Positions 1,804-39,905 of a DNA stretch of 43,104 nt are shown piece after piece; the stretch's first letter is position 1, and every line of letters begins with the position of its first letter. The notes under the pieces are model-generated. The model was not told the DNA's origin, did no database searches, and saw nothing but the letters and a program-made list of their open reading frames with translations. Source of the DNA: Escherichia coli (GTDB taxonomy: Bacteria; Pseudomonadota; Gammaproteobacteria; Enterobacterales; Enterobacteriaceae). The position numbers were made by a program, and so were the translations under genes. The DNA is taken from the NCBI RefSeq assembly GCF_003334385.1, contig NZ_QOWN01000036.1. One strand, written 5' to 3'.

Positions 1804-3096
1804 TCACAGATACGGCGACCAGGCAGGGAATTTGACCTGTCCATCAGTTGCCGGAAGACGCGCTTTGAAACGCCCATCTGTAGAAACCAAATTCAGCACG
1901 GATCCCATCCCCTGAGAAGAGCTGTAGATTACCATAGTGCCGTTAGGTGCCAGACTTGGCGTTTCATCCAGGAACGTGGACGACAGAACTTGTACGCCTC
2001 CCGTTGCCAGATCTTGTTTGGCAATGTGCTGCTGCCCACCATTGGAGCTGACCATTACCATAAATTTACCGTCGCTGCTGACATCCGCATCCTGGTTCTG
2101 CGAACCTTCCCAGGTAATACGTTGTGGCGCACCGCCGTTGATATTCACTTTATAAACCTGCGGACGACCGGCCTGGTCAGAAGTAAATGCCAGGTTCTGG
2201 CTATCCGGGAACCAGGTCGGTTCGGTATTGTTACTGCGACCATCAGTCACCTGGCGGATCTGACCAGAAGCCAAATCCATTACGTACAGGTTCAGACTAC
2301 CGGTTTTCGACAAGGCGAATGCCAGTTTGCTGCCGTCTGGCGAGAATGCAGGTGCACCGTTGTGACGCGGGAATGAAGCCACCTGACGTACAGCGCCATT
2401 TGCCAGCGTCTGAATAACCAGCGCGGAACGACCGCTTTCGAAGGTCACATAAGCCAGTTTAGAACCGTCTGGTGACCACGCCGGAGACATCAGCGGCTGC
2501 GGTGAACGGTGAACGACAAACTGGTTGTAACCGTCATAGTCAGATACGCGCAGTTCATACGGGAACTGACCGCCGTTGGTCTGAACAACGTAGGCAATAC
2601 GAGTACGGAACGCACCTTTAATGCCGGTCAGTTTTTCAAACACTTCATCACTGGCGGTATGACCAGCATAACGCAGCCACTGCTTGTTCACTTTGTACGA
2701 GTTCTGAGCAAGTACAGTACCCGGTGCGCCGCCAGTGTCAACAAGTTGATAAGCAACATTGTAAGAACCATCCGGATTCGGAGTGACCTGACCGACAACT
2801 ACAGCGTCAATGCCCAGTGCGGACCATGCAGCTGGTTGTACTTCCTGCGCACTACCCGGCTGCTGTGGCAGACGAGCGCGATCTAACGGATTAAATTTAC
2901 CGCTGTTACGCAAGTCAGCAGCAACGATGCCGCCAATATCTTCAGGTGCCGCACCAGGCCCCGCCCACTGGAAAGGAACAACACCAATAGGACGACCGGA
3001 ATCTACACCGCTGTCGATCACAATGCGGACTTCAGCATGCAGAACTGATGCCCACAGTATGAGAAAACCAAATGCTACTCGTAATGCCTGCTTCAT
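1804..3096 (-). CDS. tolB: Tol-Pal system periplasmic beta-propeller protein TolB
   Basis: 430 aa from the second Met ([21 protein letters not shown] signal peptide); sequence recognised as TolB. Confidence 0.95.
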
Positions 3097-6654: not shown

Positions 6655-7794
6655 TTAGTACAGAGAGTGGGTGTTACGTTCAATATCTTCTTTGGTGATA
6701 CGACCGAACATTTTCCAGTAACACCAGGCGGTGTAGAGCAGAATGATCGGTACCAGAACCACCGCAACCCAGGTCATGACGTTAAGCGTCAGCTGGCTGG
6801 AAGTTGCATCCCACATTGTCAGACTTGCGTTCATCATGGTGCTGGACGGCATCACAAACGGGAACATTGCGATACCGGCTGTCAGGATGATGCAGGCCAG
6901 CGTCAGGGAGGAGAACACAAACGCCCACGCGGCTTTATCCATACGTGCAGTCAGGATGGTCAGCAGCGGCAGAACCACACCCAGTGCCGGAATAGCCCAC
7001 AGAATTGGCGTGTTGTTGAAGTTAACCAGCCATGCGCCAGCTTCACGAACCACTTCTTTATTCAGTGGGTTAGAGGCTGCGTAATGGTCCATTGTCGATT
7101 TCACGACATAACCATCGATACCGTACATCACCCATACGCCAGCCAGTGCGAAACAGACCAGTGTCACCAGCGCAGCCACCTGAGCCGTTGCACGGGTACG
7201 CAGGTGCAGTTCGCCCACGGTACGCATTTGCAGATAGGTTGCGCCCTGAGTAATGATCATCCCTACGCTCACCACGCCTGCCAGCAGGCCGAACGGGTTA
7301 AGCAACTGGAAGAAGTTACCGGTGTAGTACAGACGCAGATATTCATCAACGTTGAACGGTACGCCCTGCAACAGGTTACCGAACGCTACACCAATTACCA
7401 GCGGCGGAACGAAGCTACCAATGAAGATGCCCCAGTCCCACATGTTACGCCAGCGGGTTTCTTCAATCTTGGAGCGGTAGTCAAAACCGACCGGACGGAA
7501 GAACAAAGACGCCAGCACGAGGATCATCGCCACATAGAAGCCGGAGAACGCAGCGGCATAGACCATCGGCCAGGCAGCAAAGAGTGCGCCGCCCGCGGTG
7601 ATCAGCCAAACCTGGTTACCGTCCCAGTGTGGTGCAATGGAGTTAATCATAATTCGACGCTCGGTGTCGTTACGACCGAGGAAACGGGTGAGCATGCCCA
7701 CCCCCATGTCGAAACCGTCAGTGACTGCAAAACCAATCAGCAGAACGCCAACCAGCAGCCACCAGATAAAACGCAATACTTCATAATCGATCAT
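6655..7794 (-). CDS. cydB: Cytochrome bd-I ubiquinol oxidase subunit II
   Basis: 379-aa polytopic membrane ORF recognised as CydB. Confidence 0.95.
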   Translation of the reverse strand: MIDYEVLRFIWWLLVGVLLIGFAVTDGFDMGVGMLTRFLGRNDTERRIMINSIAPHWDGNQVWLITAGGALFAAWPMVYAAAFSGFYVAMILVLASLFFRPVGFDYRSKIEETRWRNMWDWGIFIGSFVPPLVIGVAFGNLLQGVPFNVDEYLRLYYTGNFFQLLNPFGLLAGVVSVGMIITQGATYLQMRTVGELHLRTRATAQVAALVTLVCFALAGVWVMYGIDGYVVKSTMDHYAASNPLNKEVVREAGAWLVNFNNTPILWAIPALGVVLPLLTILTARMDKAAWAFVFSSLTLACIILTAGIAMFPFVMPSSTMMNASLTMWDATSSQLTLNVMTWVAVVLVPIILLYTAWCYWKMFGRITKEDIERNTHSLY

Positions 7795-9378: not shown

Positions 9379-9712
9379 CATGACTCCTTGCTCATCGCAT
9401 GAAGACTCCGAGAGTGAACCCCGTTAGAAAGGGTCACACGCATGCCCCAATAGAAATTTGTTTGAACACTTTCATCATACCATGTGAATGCACACAAAAA
9501 CGGCGTAAAGAAAGGTTGCAAACATGTTAATAAAAACTCAAATTGATCCCACGTATATATTACGCCGCAAAATCCTTACAATAAACAGGTTTTTGTTGAA
9601 GCAAATTTGCATTTTTCGACGGTGATCAATTTATAGCTAAATTACCGCCTTTCAGCCAATTTGATCGAGAACAATTTATCTCTTTTTGATGCCCATTTCC
9701 AAGACTTATACA

Positions 9713-9726
9713 TTGATAAATATCAA
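9713..9726. promoter_or_regulatory. Perfect FNR/CRP-family box TTGAT-AAAT-ATCAA in the cydA upstream region
   Basis: Exact palindromic match to TTGAT-N4-ATCAA about 340 bp upstream of the cydA ATG, in an AT-rich region; cydAB is known to be FNR/ArcA controlled, but the specific site is not verified here. Confidence 0.45.
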
Positions 9727-10015
9727 TTCCTACAAATTATGTTAATCATGTTTCAATAAGGTAACTTTAGTGACATTTATGTTTAAAATGTGTGAGTTAT
9801 AAGGCTGAAATTAGTTTCGGTTGGCAATTAAAGATAAAAAGAGACGAAGCAAAAACAGCACGGTTGACCTTAATTCTTTTTTTGGTCACTGGCTAATACG
9901 ACGCAGAGTTTCAGGATTACTAATAAAGGCATAAATCCACCCCGCCAATATTAACATTTAGTTAACTTATAATTATATTATAATTAACTCACCCAGGGTT
10001 ATTATTTTGTTAAAA

Positions 10016-10040
10016 ATAAAGCCACATATACGTGGCTTGA
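10016..10040 (-). terminator. Candidate intrinsic terminator downstream of mngB
   Basis: aagccac-atatac-gtggctt hairpin, followed on the minus strand by a U-rich tract (tattttt). Confidence 0.45.
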
Positions 10041-10062
10041 GAGTGAAGATAAACGCAAAATT

Positions 10063-10170
10063 ACCTGATGCGCTACGCTTGCCAGTGTCTACATCATCTC
10101 TGCAATATATTGAATTTGCCTGCTTTTGTAGACCGAATAAAGCGTTCATGCCGTATCCGGCATGAACAAA
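10063..10170. repeat. REP/BIME-type palindromic element with internal IHF-like motif (RIP-like)
   Basis: cctgatgcgctacgc and tgtagaccgaataaagcgttcatgccgtatccggcatgaac palindromic units flanking ctgcaatatattgaatttgc; the same internal motif recurs at 39820-39850. Confidence 0.6.
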
Positions 10171-10224
10171 GCGCCCTTTGTCAACAATCTGGCCGCGCAT
10201 ATGTGGCTTCGGTTTGATTGCTAT

Positions 10225-14852: not shown

Positions 14853-14861
14853 TATGTGATC

Positions 14862-14881
14862 AATTTCACTTGATTGAAATT
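14862..14881. promoter_or_regulatory. Inverted repeat AATTTCA-N6-TGAAATT in the mngR-mngA divergent region (candidate GntR-family operator)
   Basis: Perfect 7-bp inverted repeat; TGTATT direct repeats lie at 14885-14901 and tcacttgat recurs at 14801 and 14866. Inference only. Confidence 0.3.
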
Positions 14882-14960
14882 ATTTGTATTGTATTTGTAT
14901 TATTTACAGGATGAATTTATCGGGCATAATGGTTAAATTCGTATTAATGAGATACTAAAA

Positions 14961-17905: not shown

Positions 17906-18076
17906 CCGTAGGCCTGATAAGACACGTTAAACGTCACATCAGGCATCGCTTGTCGGATGCGGCGCTAGCGCCTTATCCGACCTACATTGGTGGTCCCGTA
18001 GGCCTGATAAGACGCGTCAGCGTCGCATCAGGCTTCAATTGCCGGAGAAGGCGATAATGCCTTATCCGGTCTACAG
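17906..18076. repeat. REP/BIME cluster in the sucB-sucC spacer
   Basis: Multiple gtaggcctgataagacgcg... and cggatgcggcg... / ccttatccg palindromic units within a 274-bp intergenic gap. Confidence 0.6.
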
Positions 18077-22310: not shown

Positions 22311-22428
22311 CCTGATGCGCTGCGCTTATCAGGCCTACGGGTAATGACTTGTAGGCCGGATAAGGCGTTCACGCCGCATCCGGCACTGGTTGCCTGATGC
22401 GACGCTTGCGCGTCTTATCAGGCCTACG
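22311..22428. repeat. REP/BIME cluster in the sdhB-sucA spacer
   Basis: cctgatgcgctgcgcttatcaggcctacg..., ggccggataaggcgttcacgccgcatccggc... and gcctgatgcgacgcttgcgcgtcttatcaggcctacgg palindromic units. Confidence 0.6.
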
Positions 22429-25659: not shown

Positions 25660-26367
25660 GAATAACGCCCACATGCTGTTCTTATTATTCCCTGGGGACT
25701 ACGGGCACAGAGGTTAACTTTCTGTTACCTGGAGACGTCGGGATTTCCTTCCTCCGGTCTGCTTGCGGGTCAGACAGCGTCCTTTCTATAACTGCGCGTC
25801 ATGCAAAACACTGCTTCCAGATGCGAAAACGACACGTTACAACGCTGGGTGGCTCGGGATTGCAGGGTGTTCCGGAGACCTGGCGGCAGTATAGGCTGTT
25901 CACAAAATCATTACAATTAACCTACATATAGTTTGTCGGGTTTTATCCTGAACAGTGATCCAGGTCACGATAACAACATTTATTTAATTTTTAATCATCT
26001 AATTTGACAATCATTCAACAAAGTTGTTACAAACATTACCAGGAAAAGCATATAATGCGTAAAAGTTATGAAGTCGGTATTTCACCTAAGATTAACTTAT
26101 GTAACAGTGTGGAAGTATTGACCAATTCATTCGGGACAGTTATTAGTGGTAGACAAGTTTAATAATTCGGATTGCTAAGTACTTGATTCGCCATTTATTC
26201 GTCATCAATGGATCCTTTACCTGCAAGCGCCCAGAGCTCTGTACCCAGGTTTTCCCCTCTTTCACAGAGCGGCGAGCCAAATAAAAAACGGGTAAAGCCA
26301 GGTTGATGTGCGAAGGCAAATTTAAGTTCCGGCAGTCTTACGCAATAAGGCGCTAAGGAGACCTTAA
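25660..26367. promoter_or_regulatory. Divergent sdhC / gltA control region
   Basis: 708-bp AT-rich spacer between divergently oriented sdhC and gltA; known to carry promoters for both under ArcA/CRP/FNR control, and the sdhC leader is an sRNA target. Individual sites not mapped here. Confidence 0.6.
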
Positions 26368-27651
26368 ATGGCTGATACAAAAGCAAAACTCACCCTCAAC
26401 GGGGATACAGCTGTTGAACTGGATGTGCTGAAAGGCACGCTGGGTCAAGATGTTATTGATATCCGTACTCTCGGTTCAAAAGGTGTGTTCACCTTTGACC
26501 CAGGCTTCACTTCAACCGCATCCTGCGAATCTAAAATTACTTTTATTGATGGTGATGAAGGTATTTTGCTGCACCGCGGTTTCCCGATCGATCAGCTGGC
26601 GACCGATTCTAACTACCTGGAAGTTTGTTACATCCTGCTGAATGGTGAAAAACCGACTCAGGAACAGTATGACGAATTTAAAACTACGGTGACCCGTCAT
26701 ACCATGATCCACGAGCAGATTACCCGTCTGTTCCATGCTTTCCGTCGCGACTCGCATCCAATGGCAGTCATGTGTGGTATTACCGGCGCGCTGGCGGCGT
26801 TCTATCACGACTCGCTGGATGTTAACAATCCTCGTCACCGTGAAATTGCCGCGTTCCGCCTGCTGTCGAAAATGCCGACCATGGCCGCGATGTGTTACAA
26901 GTATTCCATTGGTCAGCCATTTGTTTACCCGCGCAACGATCTCTCCTACGCCGGTAACTTCCTGAATATGATGTTCTCCACGCCGTGCGAACCGTATGAA
27001 GTTAATCCGATTCTGGAACGTGCTATGGACCGTATTCTGATCCTGCACGCTGACCATGAACAGAACGCCTCTACCTCCACCGTGCGTACCGCTGGCTCTT
27101 CGGGTGCGAACCCGTTTGCCTGTATCGCAGCAGGTATTGCTTCACTGTGGGGACCTGCGCACGGCGGTGCTAACGAAGCGGCGCTGAAAATGCTGGAAGA
27201 AATCAGCTCCGTTAAACACATTCCGGAATTTGTTCGTCGTGCGAAAGACAAAAATGATTCTTTCCGCCTGATGGGCTTCGGTCACCGCGTGTACAAAAAT
27301 TACGACCCGCGCGCCACCGTAATGCGTGAAACCTGCCATGAAGTGCTGAAAGAGCTGGGCACGAAGGATGACCTGCTGGAAGTGGCTATGGAGCTGGAAA
27401 ACATCGCGCTGAACGACCCGTACTTTATCGAGAAGAAACTGTACCCGAACGTCGATTTCTACTCTGGTATCATCCTGAAAGCGATGGGTATTCCGTCTTC
27501 CATGTTCACCGTCATTTTCGCAATGGCACGTACCGTTGGCTGGATCGCCCACTGGAGCGAAATGCACAGTGACGGTATGAAGATTGCCCGTCCGCGTCAG
27601 CTGTATACAGGATATGAAAAACGCGACTTTAAAAGCGATATCAAGCGTTAA
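26368..27651 (+). CDS. gltA: Citrate synthase (type II)
   Basis: 427-aa ORF ([47 protein letters not shown]...) with strong Shine-Dalgarno (aaggag). Confidence 0.96.
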
Positions 27652-27679
27652 TGGTTGATTGCTAAGTTGTAAATATTTT

Positions 27680-27712
27680 AACCCGCCGTTCATATGGCGG
27701 GTTGATTTTTAT
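27680..27712 (+). terminator. Intrinsic terminator of gltA
   Basis: cccgcc-gttcatat-ggcggg hairpin followed by ttgattttta, about 30 nt after the gltA stop. Confidence 0.6.
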
Positions 27713-28039
27713 ATGCCTAAACACAAAAATTGTAAAAATAAAATCCATTAACAGACCTATATAGATATTTAAAAAGAATAGAACAGCTCAAATTATCAGC
27801 AACCCAATACTTTCAATTAAAAACGTCATGGTAGTCGCATTTATAACCCTATGAAAATGACGTCTATCTATACCCCCCTATATTTTATTCATCATACAAC
27901 AAATTCATGATACCAATAATTTAGTTTTGCATTTAATAAAACTAACAATATTTTTAAGCAAAACTAAAAACTAGCAATAATCAAATACGATATTCTGGCG
28001 TAGCTATACCCCTATTCTATATCCTTAAAGGACTCTGTT
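27713..28039 (+). promoter_or_regulatory. Strongly AT-rich upstream region of the ybgD fimbrial operon (candidate H-NS-silenced promoter)
   Basis: About 330 bp dominated by A/T runs, contrasting with the flanking gltA coding sequence; the ybgD Shine-Dalgarno (aaagga) is at its 3' end. Confidence 0.4.
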
Positions 28040-28606
28040 ATGTTTAAAGGACAAAAAACATTGGCCGCACTGGCCGTATCTCTGCTGTTCACTGCACCTG
28101 TTTATGCTGCTGATGAAGGTTCTGGCGAAATTCACTTTAAGGGGGAGGTTATTGAAGCACCTTGTGAAATTCATCCAGAAGATATTGATAAAAACATAGA
28201 TCTTGGACAAGTCACGACAACCCATATAAACCGGGAGCATCATAGCAATAAAGTGGCCGTCGACATTCGCTTGATCAACTGTGATCTGCCTGCTTCTGAC
28301 AACGGTAGCGGAATGCCGGTATCCAAAGTTGGCGTAACCTTCGATAGCACGGCTAAGACAACTGGTGCTACGCCTTTGTTGAGCAACACCAGTGCAGGCG
28401 AAGCAACTGGGGTCGGTGTACGACTGATGGACAAAAATGACGGTAACATCGTATTAGGTTCAGCCGCGCCAGATCTTGACCTGGATGCAAGCTCATCAGA
28501 ACAGACGCTGAACTTTTTCGCCTGGATGGAACAAATTGATAATGCAGTCGATGTCACGGCAGGTGAAGTAACCGCTAACGCAACCTACGTGCTGGATTAT
28601 AAATAA
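28040..28606 (+). CDS. ybgD: Fimbrial major subunit-like protein YbgD
   Basis: 188-aa ORF with signal peptide (MFKGQKTLAALAVSLLFTAPVYA) and a C-terminal beta-strand typical of pilins. Confidence 0.9.
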   Translation: MFKGQKTLAALAVSLLFTAPVYAADEGSGEIHFKGEVIEAPCEIHPEDIDKNIDLGQVTTTHINREHHSNKVAVDIRLINCDLPASDNGSGMPVSKVGVTFDSTAKTTGATPLLSNTSAGEATGVGVRLMDKNDGNIVLGSAAPDLDLDASSSEQTLNFFAWMEQIDNAVDVTAGEVTANATYVLDYK

Positions 28607-28616
28607 GTATTATTTT

Positions 28617-28637
28617 GGCGGCATCATCGCCGCCTTT
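28617..28637 (+). terminator. GC-rich hairpin between ybgD and ybgQ (candidate partial terminator/attenuator)
   Basis: ggcggc-atcatc-gccgcc followed by ttt, 11 nt after the ybgD stop. Confidence 0.35.
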
Positions 28638-28656
28638 CATAAAATATTTATCAGGT

Positions 28657-31113
28657 ATGGACACCGTGAATATTTATCGACTCTCTTTTGTATCCTGCCT
28701 GGTCATGGCGATGCCTTGCGCAATGGCGGTCGAATTCAATCTGAATGTTCTCGATAAATCAATGCGCGACCGCATTGATATTTCATTATTAAAGGAAAAA
28801 GGAGTCATTGCTCCCGGTGAATATTTTGTTAGCGTTGCGGTGAATAACAACAAAATCAGTAATGGGCAAAAAATTAACTGGCAAAAAAAGGGTGACAAAA
28901 CCATTCCATGCATCAATGATTCACTGGTCGATAAATTTGGTTTAAAACCAGATATCCGTCAGTCCTTGCCACAGATAGATCGGTGTATTGATTTCAGTTC
29001 CCGACCTGAAATGCTCTTCAATTTCGATCAAGCCAATCAGCAACTGAATATTAGTATTCCGCAAGCCTGGCTGGCGTGGCACTCAGAAAACTGGGCTCCC
29101 CCCTCTACATGGAAAGAAGGTGTTGCCGGTGTCCTGATGGATTACAACTTGTTTGCCAGCAGCTACCGCCCACAGGACGGCAGCAGCAGCACTAACCTGA
29201 ATGCCTACGGTACCGCCGGAATTAACGCCGGGGCATGGCGCTTACGCAGTGATTACCAGCTTAATAAGACCGATAGCGAAGATAACCATGACCAGTCAGG
29301 CGGAATATCGCGCACCTATCTTTTTCGTCCATTACCGCAATTAGGCTCTAAGTTAACCCTCGGCGAAACCGATTTCAGTTCCAATATTTTCGATGGTTTT
29401 TCTTATACCGGCGCGGCACTGGCGAGTGACGATCGAATGTTACCGTGGGAGCTGCGTGGCTACGCCCCACAAATTAGCGGTATTGCACAGACCAATGCCA
29501 CGGTGACGATCAGTCAATCAGGCCGCGTCATTTACCAGAAAAAAGTCCCGCCAGGCCCGTTTATTATTGATGACCTCAATCAGTCTGTTCAGGGCACGCT
29601 GGATGTCAAAGTGACGGAAGAAGATGGTCGGGTGAACAATTTCCAGGTTTCGGCAGCATCGACGCCCTTCCTGACTCGCCAGGGACAGGTTCGCTATAAA
29701 TTGGCCGCGGGTCAGCCACGGCCTTCCATGTCACATCAAACTGAAAATGAAACCTTTTTTAGCAATGAAGTTTCCTGGGGGATGCTCTCAAACACCTCGC
29801 TGTACGGCGGCCTGCTGATTTCTGATGATGACTACCATTCTGCCGCAATGGGTATCGGGCAAAATATGCTGTGGCTTGGCGCACTGTCCTTTGATGTCAC
29901 CTGGGCCAGTAGCCATTTTGATACTCAGCAGGACGAGCGGGGCTTAAGCTACCGTTTTAATTACAGCAAACAAGTGGATGCCACCAACAGCACGATTTCG
30001 CTCGCCGCTTATCGCTTCTCAGATCGTCATTTTCACAGCTACGCCAACTATCTGGATCACAAATACAACGACAGCGATGCGCAGGACGAAAAACAGACGA
30101 TCAGCTTATCCGTGGGCCAACCGATTACCCCACTAAACCTCAATCTTTACGCCAACCTGCTACATCAAACCTGGTGGAATGCAGACGCCTCCACGACCGC
30201 CAACATCACAGCAGGTTTTAATGTTGATATTGGTGACTGGAGAGATATCTCGATTTCGACGTCATTCAATACGACCCACTACGAAGATAAAGATCGCGAC
30301 AACCAGATTTATCTGTCGATTTCGCTCCCCTTCGGTAACGGTGGTCGGGTTGGCTATGACATGCAAAACAGTAGCCACAGCACCATACACCGCATGTCGT
30401 GGAACGATACGCTGGATGAACGTAATAGCTGGGGCATGTCTGCCGGACTGCAATCCGATCGTCCGGACAATGGAGCCCAGGTGAGCGGTAACTATCAGCA
30501 CCTGAGTTCAGCGGGTGAGTGGGATATTTCTGGTACCTATGCCGCCAGTGATTACAGTTCCGTCAGCAGCAGCTGGAGCGGTTCTTTCACCGCAACCCAA
30601 TATGGTGCAGCATTTCATCGCCGCAGCTCCACCAATGAACCACGCCTGATGGTCAGCACCGATGGCGTGGCAGATATTCCGGTTCAGGGCAATCTCGACT
30701 ACACCAACCATTTTGGCATTGCGGTGGTGCCGTTGATTTCCAGTTACCAGCCTTCCACCGTGGCGGTGAACATGAATGACTTACCCGACGGCGTAACAGT
30801 TGCAGAAAACGTCATCAAGGAAACATGGATTGAAGGCGCGATAGGTTACAAATCACTGGCTTCCCGTTCCGGTAAAGACGTTAACGTCATCATACGCAAC
30901 GCCAGCGGTCAGTTCCCTCCCCTCGGTGCGGATATCCGCCAGGATGACAGCGGCATTAGCGTGGGTATGGTTGGCGAGGAAGGACATGCCTGGTTAAGCG
31001 GTGTCGCTGAAAATCAACTGTTTACCGTGGTCTGGGGTGAGCAAAGCTGCATTATTCATCTGCCAGAACGTCTGGAAGACACGACCAAACGCCTGATTTT
31101 ACCTTGTCATTAA
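28657..31113 (+). CDS. ybgQ: Fimbrial outer-membrane usher YbgQ
   Basis: Large ORF with usher-family features; start ambiguous: ATG at 28657 (818 aa), GTG at 28666 (815 aa), or the track ATG at 28615, which lies inside the hairpin. Confidence 0.88.
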   Translation: MDTVNIYRLSFVSCLVMAMPCAMAVEFNLNVLDKSMRDRIDISLLKEKGVIAPGEYFVSVAVNNNKISNGQKINWQKKGDKTIPCINDSLVDKFGLKPDIRQSLPQIDRCIDFSSRPEMLFNFDQANQQLNISIPQAWLAWHSENWAPPSTWKEGVAGVLMDYNLFASSYRPQDGSSSTNLNAYGTAGINAGAWRLRSDYQLNKTDSEDNHDQSGGISRTYLFRPLPQLGSKLTLGETDFSSNIFDGFSYTGAALASDDRMLPWELRGYAPQISGIAQTNATVTISQSGRVIYQKKVPPGPFIIDDLNQSVQGTLDVKVTEEDGRVNNFQVSAASTPFLTRQGQVRYKLAAGQPRPSMSHQTENETFFSNEVSWGMLSNTSLYGGLLISDDDYHSAAMGIGQNMLWLGALSFDVTWASSHFDTQQDERGLSYRFNYSKQVDATNSTISLAAYRFSDRHFHSYANYLDHKYNDSDAQDEKQTISLSVGQPITPLNLNLYANLLHQTWWNADASTTANITAGFNVDIGDWRDISISTSFNTTHYEDKDRDNQIYLSISLPFGNGGRVGYDMQNSSHSTIHRMSWNDTLDERNSWGMSAGLQSDRPDNGAQVSGNYQHLSSAGEWDISGTYAASDYSSVSSSWSGSFTATQYGAAFHRRSSTNEPRLMVSTDGVADIPVQGNLDYTNHFGIAVVPLISSYQPSTVAVNMNDLPDGVTVAENVIKETWIEGAIGYKSLASRSGKDVNVIIRNASGQFPPLGADIRQDDSGISVGMVGEEGHAWLSGVAENQLFTVVWGEQSCIIHLPERLEDTTKRLILPCH

Positions 31114-31127
31114 TTAAGGAAAAGAGA

Positions 31128-31856
31128 ATGACATTTATTAAAGGATTACCCTTAATGTTGTTAACCATCAGCTTGGGTTGCAATGCTGCGGTGCAACCCG
31201 ATCGCACACGCATTGTGTTTAACGCCAATGACAAAGCCACCAGCCTGCGTATCGAAAACCAAAGTGACAAACTGCCTTATCTTGCTTATTCCTGGATAGA
31301 AAATGAAAAAGGGGAGAAAAGCGATGCTCTTCTGGTCGCTTTGCCCCCTATTCAACGTCTGGAACCGAAAGCGACATCGCAGGTGCGGGTTGTGAAACAA
31401 GCCTCAACCACACAATTACCTGGCGATCGCGAAACGCTATTTTTCTACAATATGCGCGAAATTCCTCCCGCTCCGGATAAAAGCAGCGACCATGCGATAC
31501 TTCAGGTCGCTATTCAAAGTCGTATTAAATTGTTCTGGCGACCGGCTGCATTACGCAAGAAAGCAGGAGAAAAGGTCGAACTGCAGTTACAGGTCAGCCA
31601 GCAGGGCAACCAACTGACACTGAAAAATCCTACCGCGTATTATCTGACCATTGCCTATCTGGGGAGAAATGAAAAAGGCGTTCTCCCAGGCTTCAAAACC
31701 GTGATGGTTGCACCTTTTAGTACGGTCAACACAAACACCGGAAGTTATAGCGGCAGCCAGTTTTATCTCGGTTACATGGATGATTACGGCGCATTACGCA
31801 TGACGACGCTCAACTGCAGCGGACAATGCCGTTTACAAGCAGTGGAGGCGAAATGA
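31128..31856 (+). CDS. ybgP: Fimbrial periplasmic chaperone YbgP (PapD-like)
   Basis: 242 aa from [20 protein letters not shown] with a good Shine-Dalgarno (aaggaaaagag); the track ORF adds 8 upstream codons. Confidence 0.9.
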
Positions 31857-32914
31857 GTGCTGGCAAGGGATTGTTGCTCGTCATCTGCCTGTTATTTCTG
31901 CCGTTGAAGTCTGCAATGGCGCTGAACTGCTATTTTGGTACATCTGGTGGCGCAGTAGAAAAATCAGAAGCGATTCAACCGTTTGCTGTACCAGGCAATG
32001 CCAAACCCGGTGATAAGATCTGGGAATCTGACGATATTAAAATTCCCGTCTATTGTGACAACAATACCAACGGCAACTTTGAAAGCGAGCATGTCTACGC
32101 CTGGGTAAACCCCTATCCGGGGGTGCAGGATCGTTATTATCAACTCGGCGTGACATACAACGGTGTCGATTACGATGCCAGTCTGGGAAAAAGTCGCATC
32201 GACACTAACCAGTGTATCGACAGTAAGAACATTGATATTTATACCCCTGAGCAGATCATCGCGATGGGATGGCAGAACAAAATTTGCTCGGGCGATCCCG
32301 CTAATATTCATATGTCGCGTACCTTTCTCGCTCGCATGCGGTTATACGTCAAAATACGAGAAATGCCGCCGCATGATTATCAAAGTACGCTTAGCGACTA
32401 TATCGTCGTGCAATTTGACGGTGCCGGTAGCGTTAACGAAGACCCTACTGCCCAAAACCTGAAATATCATATTACTGGTCTGGAAAACATTCGCGTGCTG
32501 GATTGCAGCGTCAATTTTTCCATTTCACCGGAAACACAGGTGATTGATTTTGGTAAATTTAATTTGCTGGATATACGTCGCCACACAATGTCGAAAACGT
32601 TCAGTATTAAAACGACCAAGAGCCAAAACGATCAATGCACCGACGGATTTAAAGTCAGTTCCTCCTTTTATACCGAAGAAACGTTGGTTGAAGAAGATAA
32701 AGCATTGTTGATTGGTAATGGTCTGAAGCTACGTTTACTGGATGAAAACGCCTCGCCTTATACCTTCAATAAATATGCTGAATACGCCGATTTCACCAGT
32801 GACATGTTGGTCTACGAAAAAACCTATACGGCTGAACTTTCGTCCATTCCAGGCACCCCCATCGAGGCTGGCCCCTTCGATACAGTGGTGCTTTTTAAGA
32901 TTAACTATAACTGA
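31853..32914 (+). CDS. ybgO: Fimbrial adhesin-like protein YbgO
   Basis: 353 aa from [23 protein letters not shown]; ATGA overlap with the ybgP stop; operon-terminal position typical of tip adhesins. Confidence 0.88.
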
Positions 32915-39775: not shown

Positions 39776-39905
39776 GCCTGATGCGACGCTTGACGCGTCT
39801 TATCAGGCCTACGTATTTCCTGCAATTTATTGAATTTGCACAAATTTGTAGGCTGGATAAGGCGTTCACGCCGCATCCGGCATCTGGGCTCGATTGCCTG
39901 ACGCG
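39776..39905. repeat. REP/BIME (RIP-like) element in the convergent dtpD-phr spacer
   Basis: gcctgatgcgacgcttgacgcgtcttatcaggcctac and tgtaggctggataaggcgttcacgccgcatccggcat palindromes flanking ctgcaatttattgaatttgc. Confidence 0.6.

Follow-up and report, generated by a model that had tools for sequence, protein, structure and literature searches.

An AT-rich spacer with divergent alleles between gltA and ybgD as the probable H-NS-covered control region of the cryptic ybgDQPO fimbrial operon of Escherichia coli

The DNA analyzed here, referred to as the window, is a stretch of 43,104 nucleotides of E. coli K-12-like sequence that is 99.97% identical to MG1655 (12 differences across 43.1 kb) and is oriented as the reverse complement of MG1655 ~737,731-780,835. 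Our interest was in positions 27652-28039, a segment of 388 bp that corresponds to the gltA-ybgD spacer: according to the RefSeq annotation of near-identical K-12 records, it extends from the first base past the gltA stop codon to the last base before the ybgD ATG, and it is 99.5% identical to the K-12 spacer. The spacer is followed by the ybgDQPO operon and, downstream of ybgO, by abrB and nei (RefSeq annotation). The features of the locus are collected in Table 1. The gene names used in the preliminary description of this DNA, which spoke of a chaperone-usher operon ybgD, ybgQ, ybgP and ybgO next to gltA, agreed with the RefSeq annotation and with NCBIfam, where YbgD was recognized as a fimbrial subunit (8.9e-39), YbgQ as an usher (3.7e-193) and YbgP as a chaperone (5e-54). 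As all three matches lie below the curated equivalog cut-offs, these assignments hold at the family level only; YbgO matched no NCBIfam family. The coding part of the operon is mildly shifted towards AT (GC 0.48 versus 0.517).

Table 1. Features of the gltA-ybgD-ybgQPO locus, in window coordinates
Feature	Position	Strand	Basis
gltA (citrate synthase) CDS; upstream neighbour and left edge of the divergent segment	26368..27651	+	RefSeq annotation
gltA 3' untranslated stretch ahead of the terminator	27652..27677	+	Sequence; not conserved across alleles; no Rfam match
gltA intrinsic terminator: 12-bp stem and 4-nt loop (27678-27705), T5	27678..27710	+	Terminator scan
AT-rich core (GC 0.281), published ybgD/gltA 'promoter island', ybgDQPO upstream regulatory region	27716..28039	.	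Composition, hexamer density, PMC3661553 Table 1, PMC3946193
TAAACA-15-TAAAAT, predicted 'constitutive' RpoD promoter of ybgD (Shimada 2014)	27718..27744	+	Published prediction and sequence
TTTGCA-17-TATTTT, candidate core promoter, putative start near 27961	27926..27954	+	Our hexamer scan, conservation
Shine-Dalgarno AAGGA (28028-32), 7-nt gap, ybgD ATG (28040)	28028..28042	+	Sequence
ybgDQPO chaperone-usher operon	28040..32914	+	RefSeq annotation, NCBIfam
ybgD	28040-28606	+	RefSeq annotation
ybgQ	28666-31113	+	RefSeq annotation
ybgP	31128-31856	+	RefSeq annotation
ybgO	31853-32914	+	RefSeq annotation
Three TCGATAAATT matches with 0-1 mismatch, speculative downstream nucleation sites for H-NS	28671..28937 (28671, 28751, 28928)	.	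Motif scan

A stretch of ~390 bp had been described as lying between the gltA terminator and ybgD. The two genes do bound it, but the terminator sits inside it, near its left end. The hairpin has a fold energy of -22.7 kcal/mol (z = -4.0), and its stem is preserved in 7 alleles of the locus, three pairs being altered on both sides in a compensatory manner; a GC-rich hairpin of conserved structure followed by a U-run thus identifies a Rho-independent terminator of gltA. Other RNA or coding features were sought in the same region. Rfam gave no match at E <=1 in 26000-29000 and, in a search of the whole window, no gathering-level match in the spacer. The folding of a putative leader (27958-28075) and of the segment 27800-27900 was no better than that of shuffled sequences. 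No open reading frame of at least 20 aa lies within 27792-28011, and the small ones near the terminator look spurious. Elsewhere in the window, gathering-level Rfam matches were obtained for the CpoB/ybgF thermometer, two naRNA4 elements (REP-derived) and ES036 (1209-1347, 17911-17982, 22354-22424, 39805-39847); the known sRNA SdhX (MG1655 765050-765150) gave no Rfam match at the gathering threshold.

The preliminary description had presented the spacer as AT-rich, dominated by A/T tracts and unlike its flanks, and had proposed that its GC content and curvature be computed and H-NS ChIP data be consulted. The compositional part of this description was borne out. The GC content is 0.294 for the spacer (29.4%, versus 51.1% for the window) and 0.281 for the part following the terminator; compared with sliding 388-nt windows (0.511 +/- 0.053), the spacer lies at z = -4.1, and the 388-nt stretch of lowest GC in the whole 43 kb falls at this locus (0.286 at 27670-28057). 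The spacer contains fourteen A or T runs that are 4 nt or longer; 388 nt of the window hold 3.7 such runs on average, and the highest count in the window is reached at this same locus. Composition-matched shuffles of the spacer contained 7.8 +/- 2.4 such runs (P ~0.0125). The curvature, predicted with our own implementation of a wedge model, gave a mixed answer: the mean of the spacer was ordinary (82nd percentile), which we counted against an explanation by H-NS silencing, but a single local peak of 22.7 degrees at 27792 reached the 99th percentile.

Low GC is not a property of this spacer only. Of the 15 intergenic regions that measure 60 bp or more, one has a lower GC content, the divergent-promoter spacer between mngR and mngA (14853-14960, 108 bp, GC 0.241). 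Second in AT-richness within the window is a stretch (9630-10017, GC 0.304) of the mngB-cydA spacer (9379-10224), which precedes the housekeeping cydAB genes, is the most curved region of the window in the wedge model and also ranks second for the density of promoter-like sites. Since the region upstream of cydA and the mngR-mngA spacer are comparably AT-rich, low GC is not restricted to acquired DNA.

Promoter-like sites are exceptionally dense in the spacer. Relaxed sigma70-like hexamer pairs numbered 18 per 388 nt, the maximum of the window, versus 2.0 +/- 2.6 on average. These pairs are no more common than in the spacer's own dinucleotide shuffles, which indicates that they are a by-product of AT-richness, and we counted this absence of excess over the composition expectation against the explanation that we favour below. 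An exceptional density of potential start sites over at least 300 bp, a hallmark of promoter islands, was found, with a density that follows composition. Within the spacer, conservation points to two blocks as promoter candidates. One, AAAAATTGTAAAAAT (27725-27739), is conserved among the homologous alleles and overlaps the RpoD promoter predicted by Shimada; the other, 27926-27972, is the best conserved block of the spacer across 8 homologous alleles and contains the second candidate of Table 1, which reads TTTACA-17-TATTTT in the HD12481-type allele. The hexamer pairs named within these blocks are putative. At the right edge of the divergent spacer, nearly all alleles retain the sequence TAAAGGAyTC...ATGTTTAAAGGAC.

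Two of the 12 differences between the window and MG1655 fall inside the spacer (27725 and 27825), where ~0.11 would be expected. At 27725 a run of six A residues is reduced to five, so that the gap of the predicted RpoD site is 15 nt in the window and the MG1655 version is TAAACA-16-TAAAAT. In base-by-base comparison the A5 run was absent from MG1655, from strain SCU-104 and from a near-identical contig filed under Collinsella; as it occurs in none of the sequences compared and no complete genome is 100% identical to the spacer, a sequencing error in the homopolymer is a possible cause. The T-to-G change at 27825 is common to the window and SCU-104. It creates a 7-nt inverted repeat that is too short to carry any meaning. 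A direct repeat (TATCTATACCCC / TAGCTATACCCC) and an 11-nt inverted repeat were likewise set aside as chance or allele-specific features because they are not conserved across alleles.

The binding of H-NS suggested in the preliminary description is documented in the literature, in all cases for K-12. The catalogue of 78 E. coli promoter islands contains the spacer as '751980_413 ybgD(-)/gltA(-)' and gives it as bound by H-NS 'according to all studies', namely the ChIP sets of Grainger, Kahramanoglou and Oshima (Panyukov & Ozoline 2013, PMC3661553 Table 1). Genomic SELEX placed sites for the RpoD holoenzyme and for H-NS in the gltA/ybgD spacer as well (Shimada 2014, PMC3946193). According to the promoter-island paper, these islands as a set bind RNA polymerase and form open complexes, are transcribed at very low levels and give short oligonucleotides, and the authors ascribe the low transcription to H-NS (PMC3661553). 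That the operon is cryptic also agreed with published work, in which it is described as a cryptic, core-associated chaperone-usher locus: Ybg is classed as 'core-associated' and as 'not intact in many strains', and the same article states that the cryptic chaperone-usher fimbriae of commensal E. coli are repressed by H-NS, with reference to Korea 2010 (Wurpel 2013, PMC3559732). In a review on how chaperone-usher systems are regulated, ybg goes unmentioned. When expressed constitutively, Ybg raised adherence to bladder cells; a higher expression of ybg has been reported in HUS-associated STEC, and overproduction of BolA increased that of ybgD. A further claim, that the region was horizontally acquired, stood only in part. 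The genes adjoining the island are foreign according to GIST, Nakamura and Lawrence but not according to IslandViewer and Price (3 of 5 methods; PMC3661553). Since Ybg is core-associated and adjoins gltA in other Escherichia species, the acquisition is better read as ancient and accompanied by allelic exchange.

We also scanned the locus for the H-NS motif TCGATAAATT. This is the high-affinity motif that Lang and colleagues reportedly described in 2007; such motifs help H-NS to bind and are not obligatory. No match with <=2 mismatches was present in 27652-28039, and this was counted against the silencing explanation. The 5' part of ybgQ contains 3 of the 11 matches of the window at <=1 mismatch, including the sole perfect one. 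These lie within 270 bp, in a stretch of local GC 0.37-0.42 situated 630-890 bp downstream of the AT-rich promoter region, and the first of them is conserved in all seven alleles; because the motifs are in coding sequence, this conservation may reflect constraint on the protein.

These observations can be assembled into the following scheme. The first ~60 bp of the spacer, made up of the gltA 3' end and a strong terminator, would shield the fimbrial genes from the highly expressed gltA, and the remaining ~325 bp (28% GC) would form the upstream regulatory region of ybgDQPO. The extreme AT-richness of this part would provide many overlapping sigma70-like sites able to bind RNA polymerase and, at the same time, make it a preferred substrate for H-NS, which would coat the core and might bridge it to the AT-rich 5' part of ybgQ. 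H-NS would thereby hold productive transcription off under laboratory conditions, and the operon would stay cryptic until a putative anti-silencing input is received, for example upon BolA overproduction. The binding of H-NS and RNA polymerase and the listing as an island come from the K-12 literature, and the composition, the terminator, the gene assignments and the alleles from the present analysis. An AT content far above that of the neighbourhood was measured here, and H-NS occupancy is given by the K-12 literature. Combined, these data lead us to conclude with high confidence that the spacer is the H-NS-covered, normally silent control region of ybgDQPO. This supports the reading put forward in the preliminary description and is already known, as the AT-rich spacer had been catalogued as an H-NS-covered promoter island.

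Comparison with known systems places the spacer among several established classes. It does not differ from the E. coli promoter islands, being itself one of those listed, with >300 bp of overlapping promoter-like sites (Shavkunov 2009; PMC3661553); what we reproduced of the island features is site density and composition. The H-NS-silenced cryptic operons of K-12 (yad, yeh, yfc, sfm, ycb and yra; reportedly described by Korea et al. 2010) have the same layout of subunit, usher, chaperone and putative adhesin genes behind an AT-rich upstream spacer. Like ybg, these operons are silent in the laboratory and functional if artificially expressed, and several of their spacers are also in the promoter-island list; the ybg locus differs from them in having no dedicated regulator gene. 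With proU and bgl, which have upstream and downstream H-NS elements, ybg shares an AT-rich promoter region and a second AT-rich stretch, located in ybgQ, but the downstream motifs of ybg are in coding sequence and bridging at ybg would be pure inference.

We then compared the spacer across E. coli and related species. The gltA gene is universal in 5,426 complete E. coli genomes, and at least 80% of window positions 27400-28300 was covered in 3,748 of them at megablast sensitivity. When the spacer alone was used as the query against the same 5,426 genomes, 915 matched at >=99% identity, 20 at 80-99% and 3,412 at 60-80%, and 1,079 were unmatched. In 200-nt windows, identity to the window is 0.96-1.00 in gltA and falls to 0.37-0.88 directly after its stop codon; no other part of the locus diverges as much as the spacer (0.41-0.75 identity between alleles versus 0.92-0.99 for gltA). 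The sequences fall into at least four discrete haplotype families, namely the K-12 type, the HD12481 family, the AZ147 type and the O157/E1V33 type. Searches with the other alleles retrieved the HD12481 family in 1,493 genomes, the AZ147 type in 1,345 and the O157 type in 412, the matches of this last type all being at >=99% identity. Between HD12481 and AZ147, ybgD is 100% identical and ybgQ 99% identical, whereas the spacers are 63% identical, and one and the same YbgD protein (WP_000472422) is found behind spacers that are only 63% alike. Strains 1919D62 and OkiPb01709 carry mosaics with breakpoints inside the spacer, for instance at the conserved block AAAAAATTGTAAAAAT.

The O157 type is the most distant of these families. 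No homology could be detected between its core and the other alleles (best diagonal 0.38 versus a null 95% limit of 0.389), and its spacer is nevertheless 386 bp long, compared with 388 bp in the window, and AT-rich too (positions 7253-7638 of the O157:H7 locus and 2615-3000 of the E1V33 locus). Over the spacer, ybgD and ybgQ, the O157 type shares 98-99% identity with Escherichia sp. E1V33, with 99% for the spacer core, versus 94% for gltA, which points to allele exchange between species. Every allele, that of E. whittamii included, has a spacer of 381-391 bp with a GC content of 0.26-0.33. Outside Escherichia, a peptide-pattern scan of one genome per species, a method that finds close relatives only, detected no close relatives of YbgD except on two contaminant contigs. 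These carry K-12-type gltA-ybgD on a contig of a Collinsella sp. MAG (99.9% identical to the window) and on an Alkalicoccobacillus contig, and are most likely due to contamination by E. coli. E. coli SCPM-O-B-8794 carries a 73%-identical YbgD homologue with an usher gene and no gltA upstream, which may belong to a paralogous or relocated ybg-like operon.

At least two highly divergent alleles between the same flanking genes, as found here, define the 'switched' intergenic regions (Oren et al. 2014; Thorpe et al. 2018, PMC5890482). The allele pattern is a modest addition, a new instance of this known class and not a new kind of thing; the ybg spacer differs from the class in that all its variants keep 381-391 bp and a low GC content. 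One reading of this constancy is that the spacer acts as an exchangeable silencer cassette, in which length and GC content are selected and the sequence is not, which is swapped independently of the structural genes, even across Escherichia, and whose haplotypes set lineage-specific thresholds for turning Ybg on or off. We offer this reading tentatively and regard it as rather improbable in this full form. Divergent haplotypes behind identical or near-identical fimbrial genes would in any case amount to a natural experiment that asks if base composition is by itself what silencing requires or if particular sequences matter, and they could explain differences between lineages in Ybg expression, such as that of HUS-associated STEC.

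An alternative account is that the spacer is free of constraint and owes its AT-richness to mutation biased towards AT, H-NS binding being incidental and the operon decaying. Such drift would fit a spacer that diverges more than any other part of the locus (identity 0.37-0.88 in 200-nt windows, 0.41-0.75 overall), the small number of its conserved blocks, promoter-like sites that do not exceed the composition expectation, and an operon that is deleted in B2-type strains and 'not intact in many strains'. However, a divergence of 25-59% next to flanks that are 92-99% identical within one species requires allele exchange and not drift in place. Composition and length are kept even in the non-homologous core of the O157 type, A/T tracts exceed what composition predicts, all alleles have kept an intact ribosome-binding site, start codon and terminator, and the operon is functional once expressed. 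We consider drift unlikely and keep the H-NS-covered control region as the preferred interpretation.

Two further accounts concern the promoter itself. An RpoE promoter has been suggested for the spacer in earlier literature, and the main promoter could in principle be served by envelope-stress sigmaE (RpoE) instead of being an H-NS-silenced sigma70 promoter. Against this, genomic SELEX with the RpoE holoenzyme gave sites in ybgO and in the gltA/sdhC spacer and none in the gltA/ybgD spacer; no convincing match to GGAACTT-N16-TCAAA was noticed in the spacer, and where MG1655 has an AACTT pentamer, the window and SCU-104 read AACGT, the pentamer not being conserved in other alleles. These points make a sigmaE promoter very improbable.

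Many fimbrial operons are phase variable, and fimS inversion and the Dam/Lrp switch of pap resemble the ybg case in that an upstream regulatory spacer precedes a chaperone-usher operon that most cells keep silent. A phase-variation switch of either type could draw on the 11-nt perfect inverted repeat (27920-27930 / 27958-27968), but it is largely refuted and has a negligible chance of being correct: no GATC, and hence no GATC pair, occurs between 27547 and 28198, no recombinase or regulator gene adjoins the operon, the arms of the short repeat are 27 nt apart, allele-specific and unlike the inverted repeats flanking invertible elements, and no inverted arrangement was seen among the collection genomes, where the locus occupies a median of one place per genome and full-length matches are co-linear.

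The silent control region is interrupted or lost in some strains. In B2-type strains (HB37 and EcN), a deletion of ~27744-32521 has taken out the greater part of the AT-rich spacer together with ybgD, ybgQ, ybgP and two-thirds of ybgO from its 5' end, and has spared the gltA terminator and a ybgO remnant. Strain S171-1 carries an IS1 at 27981-27989 with a 9-bp target duplication, 51-59 bp before the ybgD ATG, which parts the AT-rich core from the gene. The deletion found in strain NR2550 is bounded by IS1 and begins within the final codons of gltA, which are fused to a truncated Orn/Lys/Arg decarboxylase gene with potE behind it; ybg is lost entirely along with many neighbouring genes, and the 3' end of gltA is altered.
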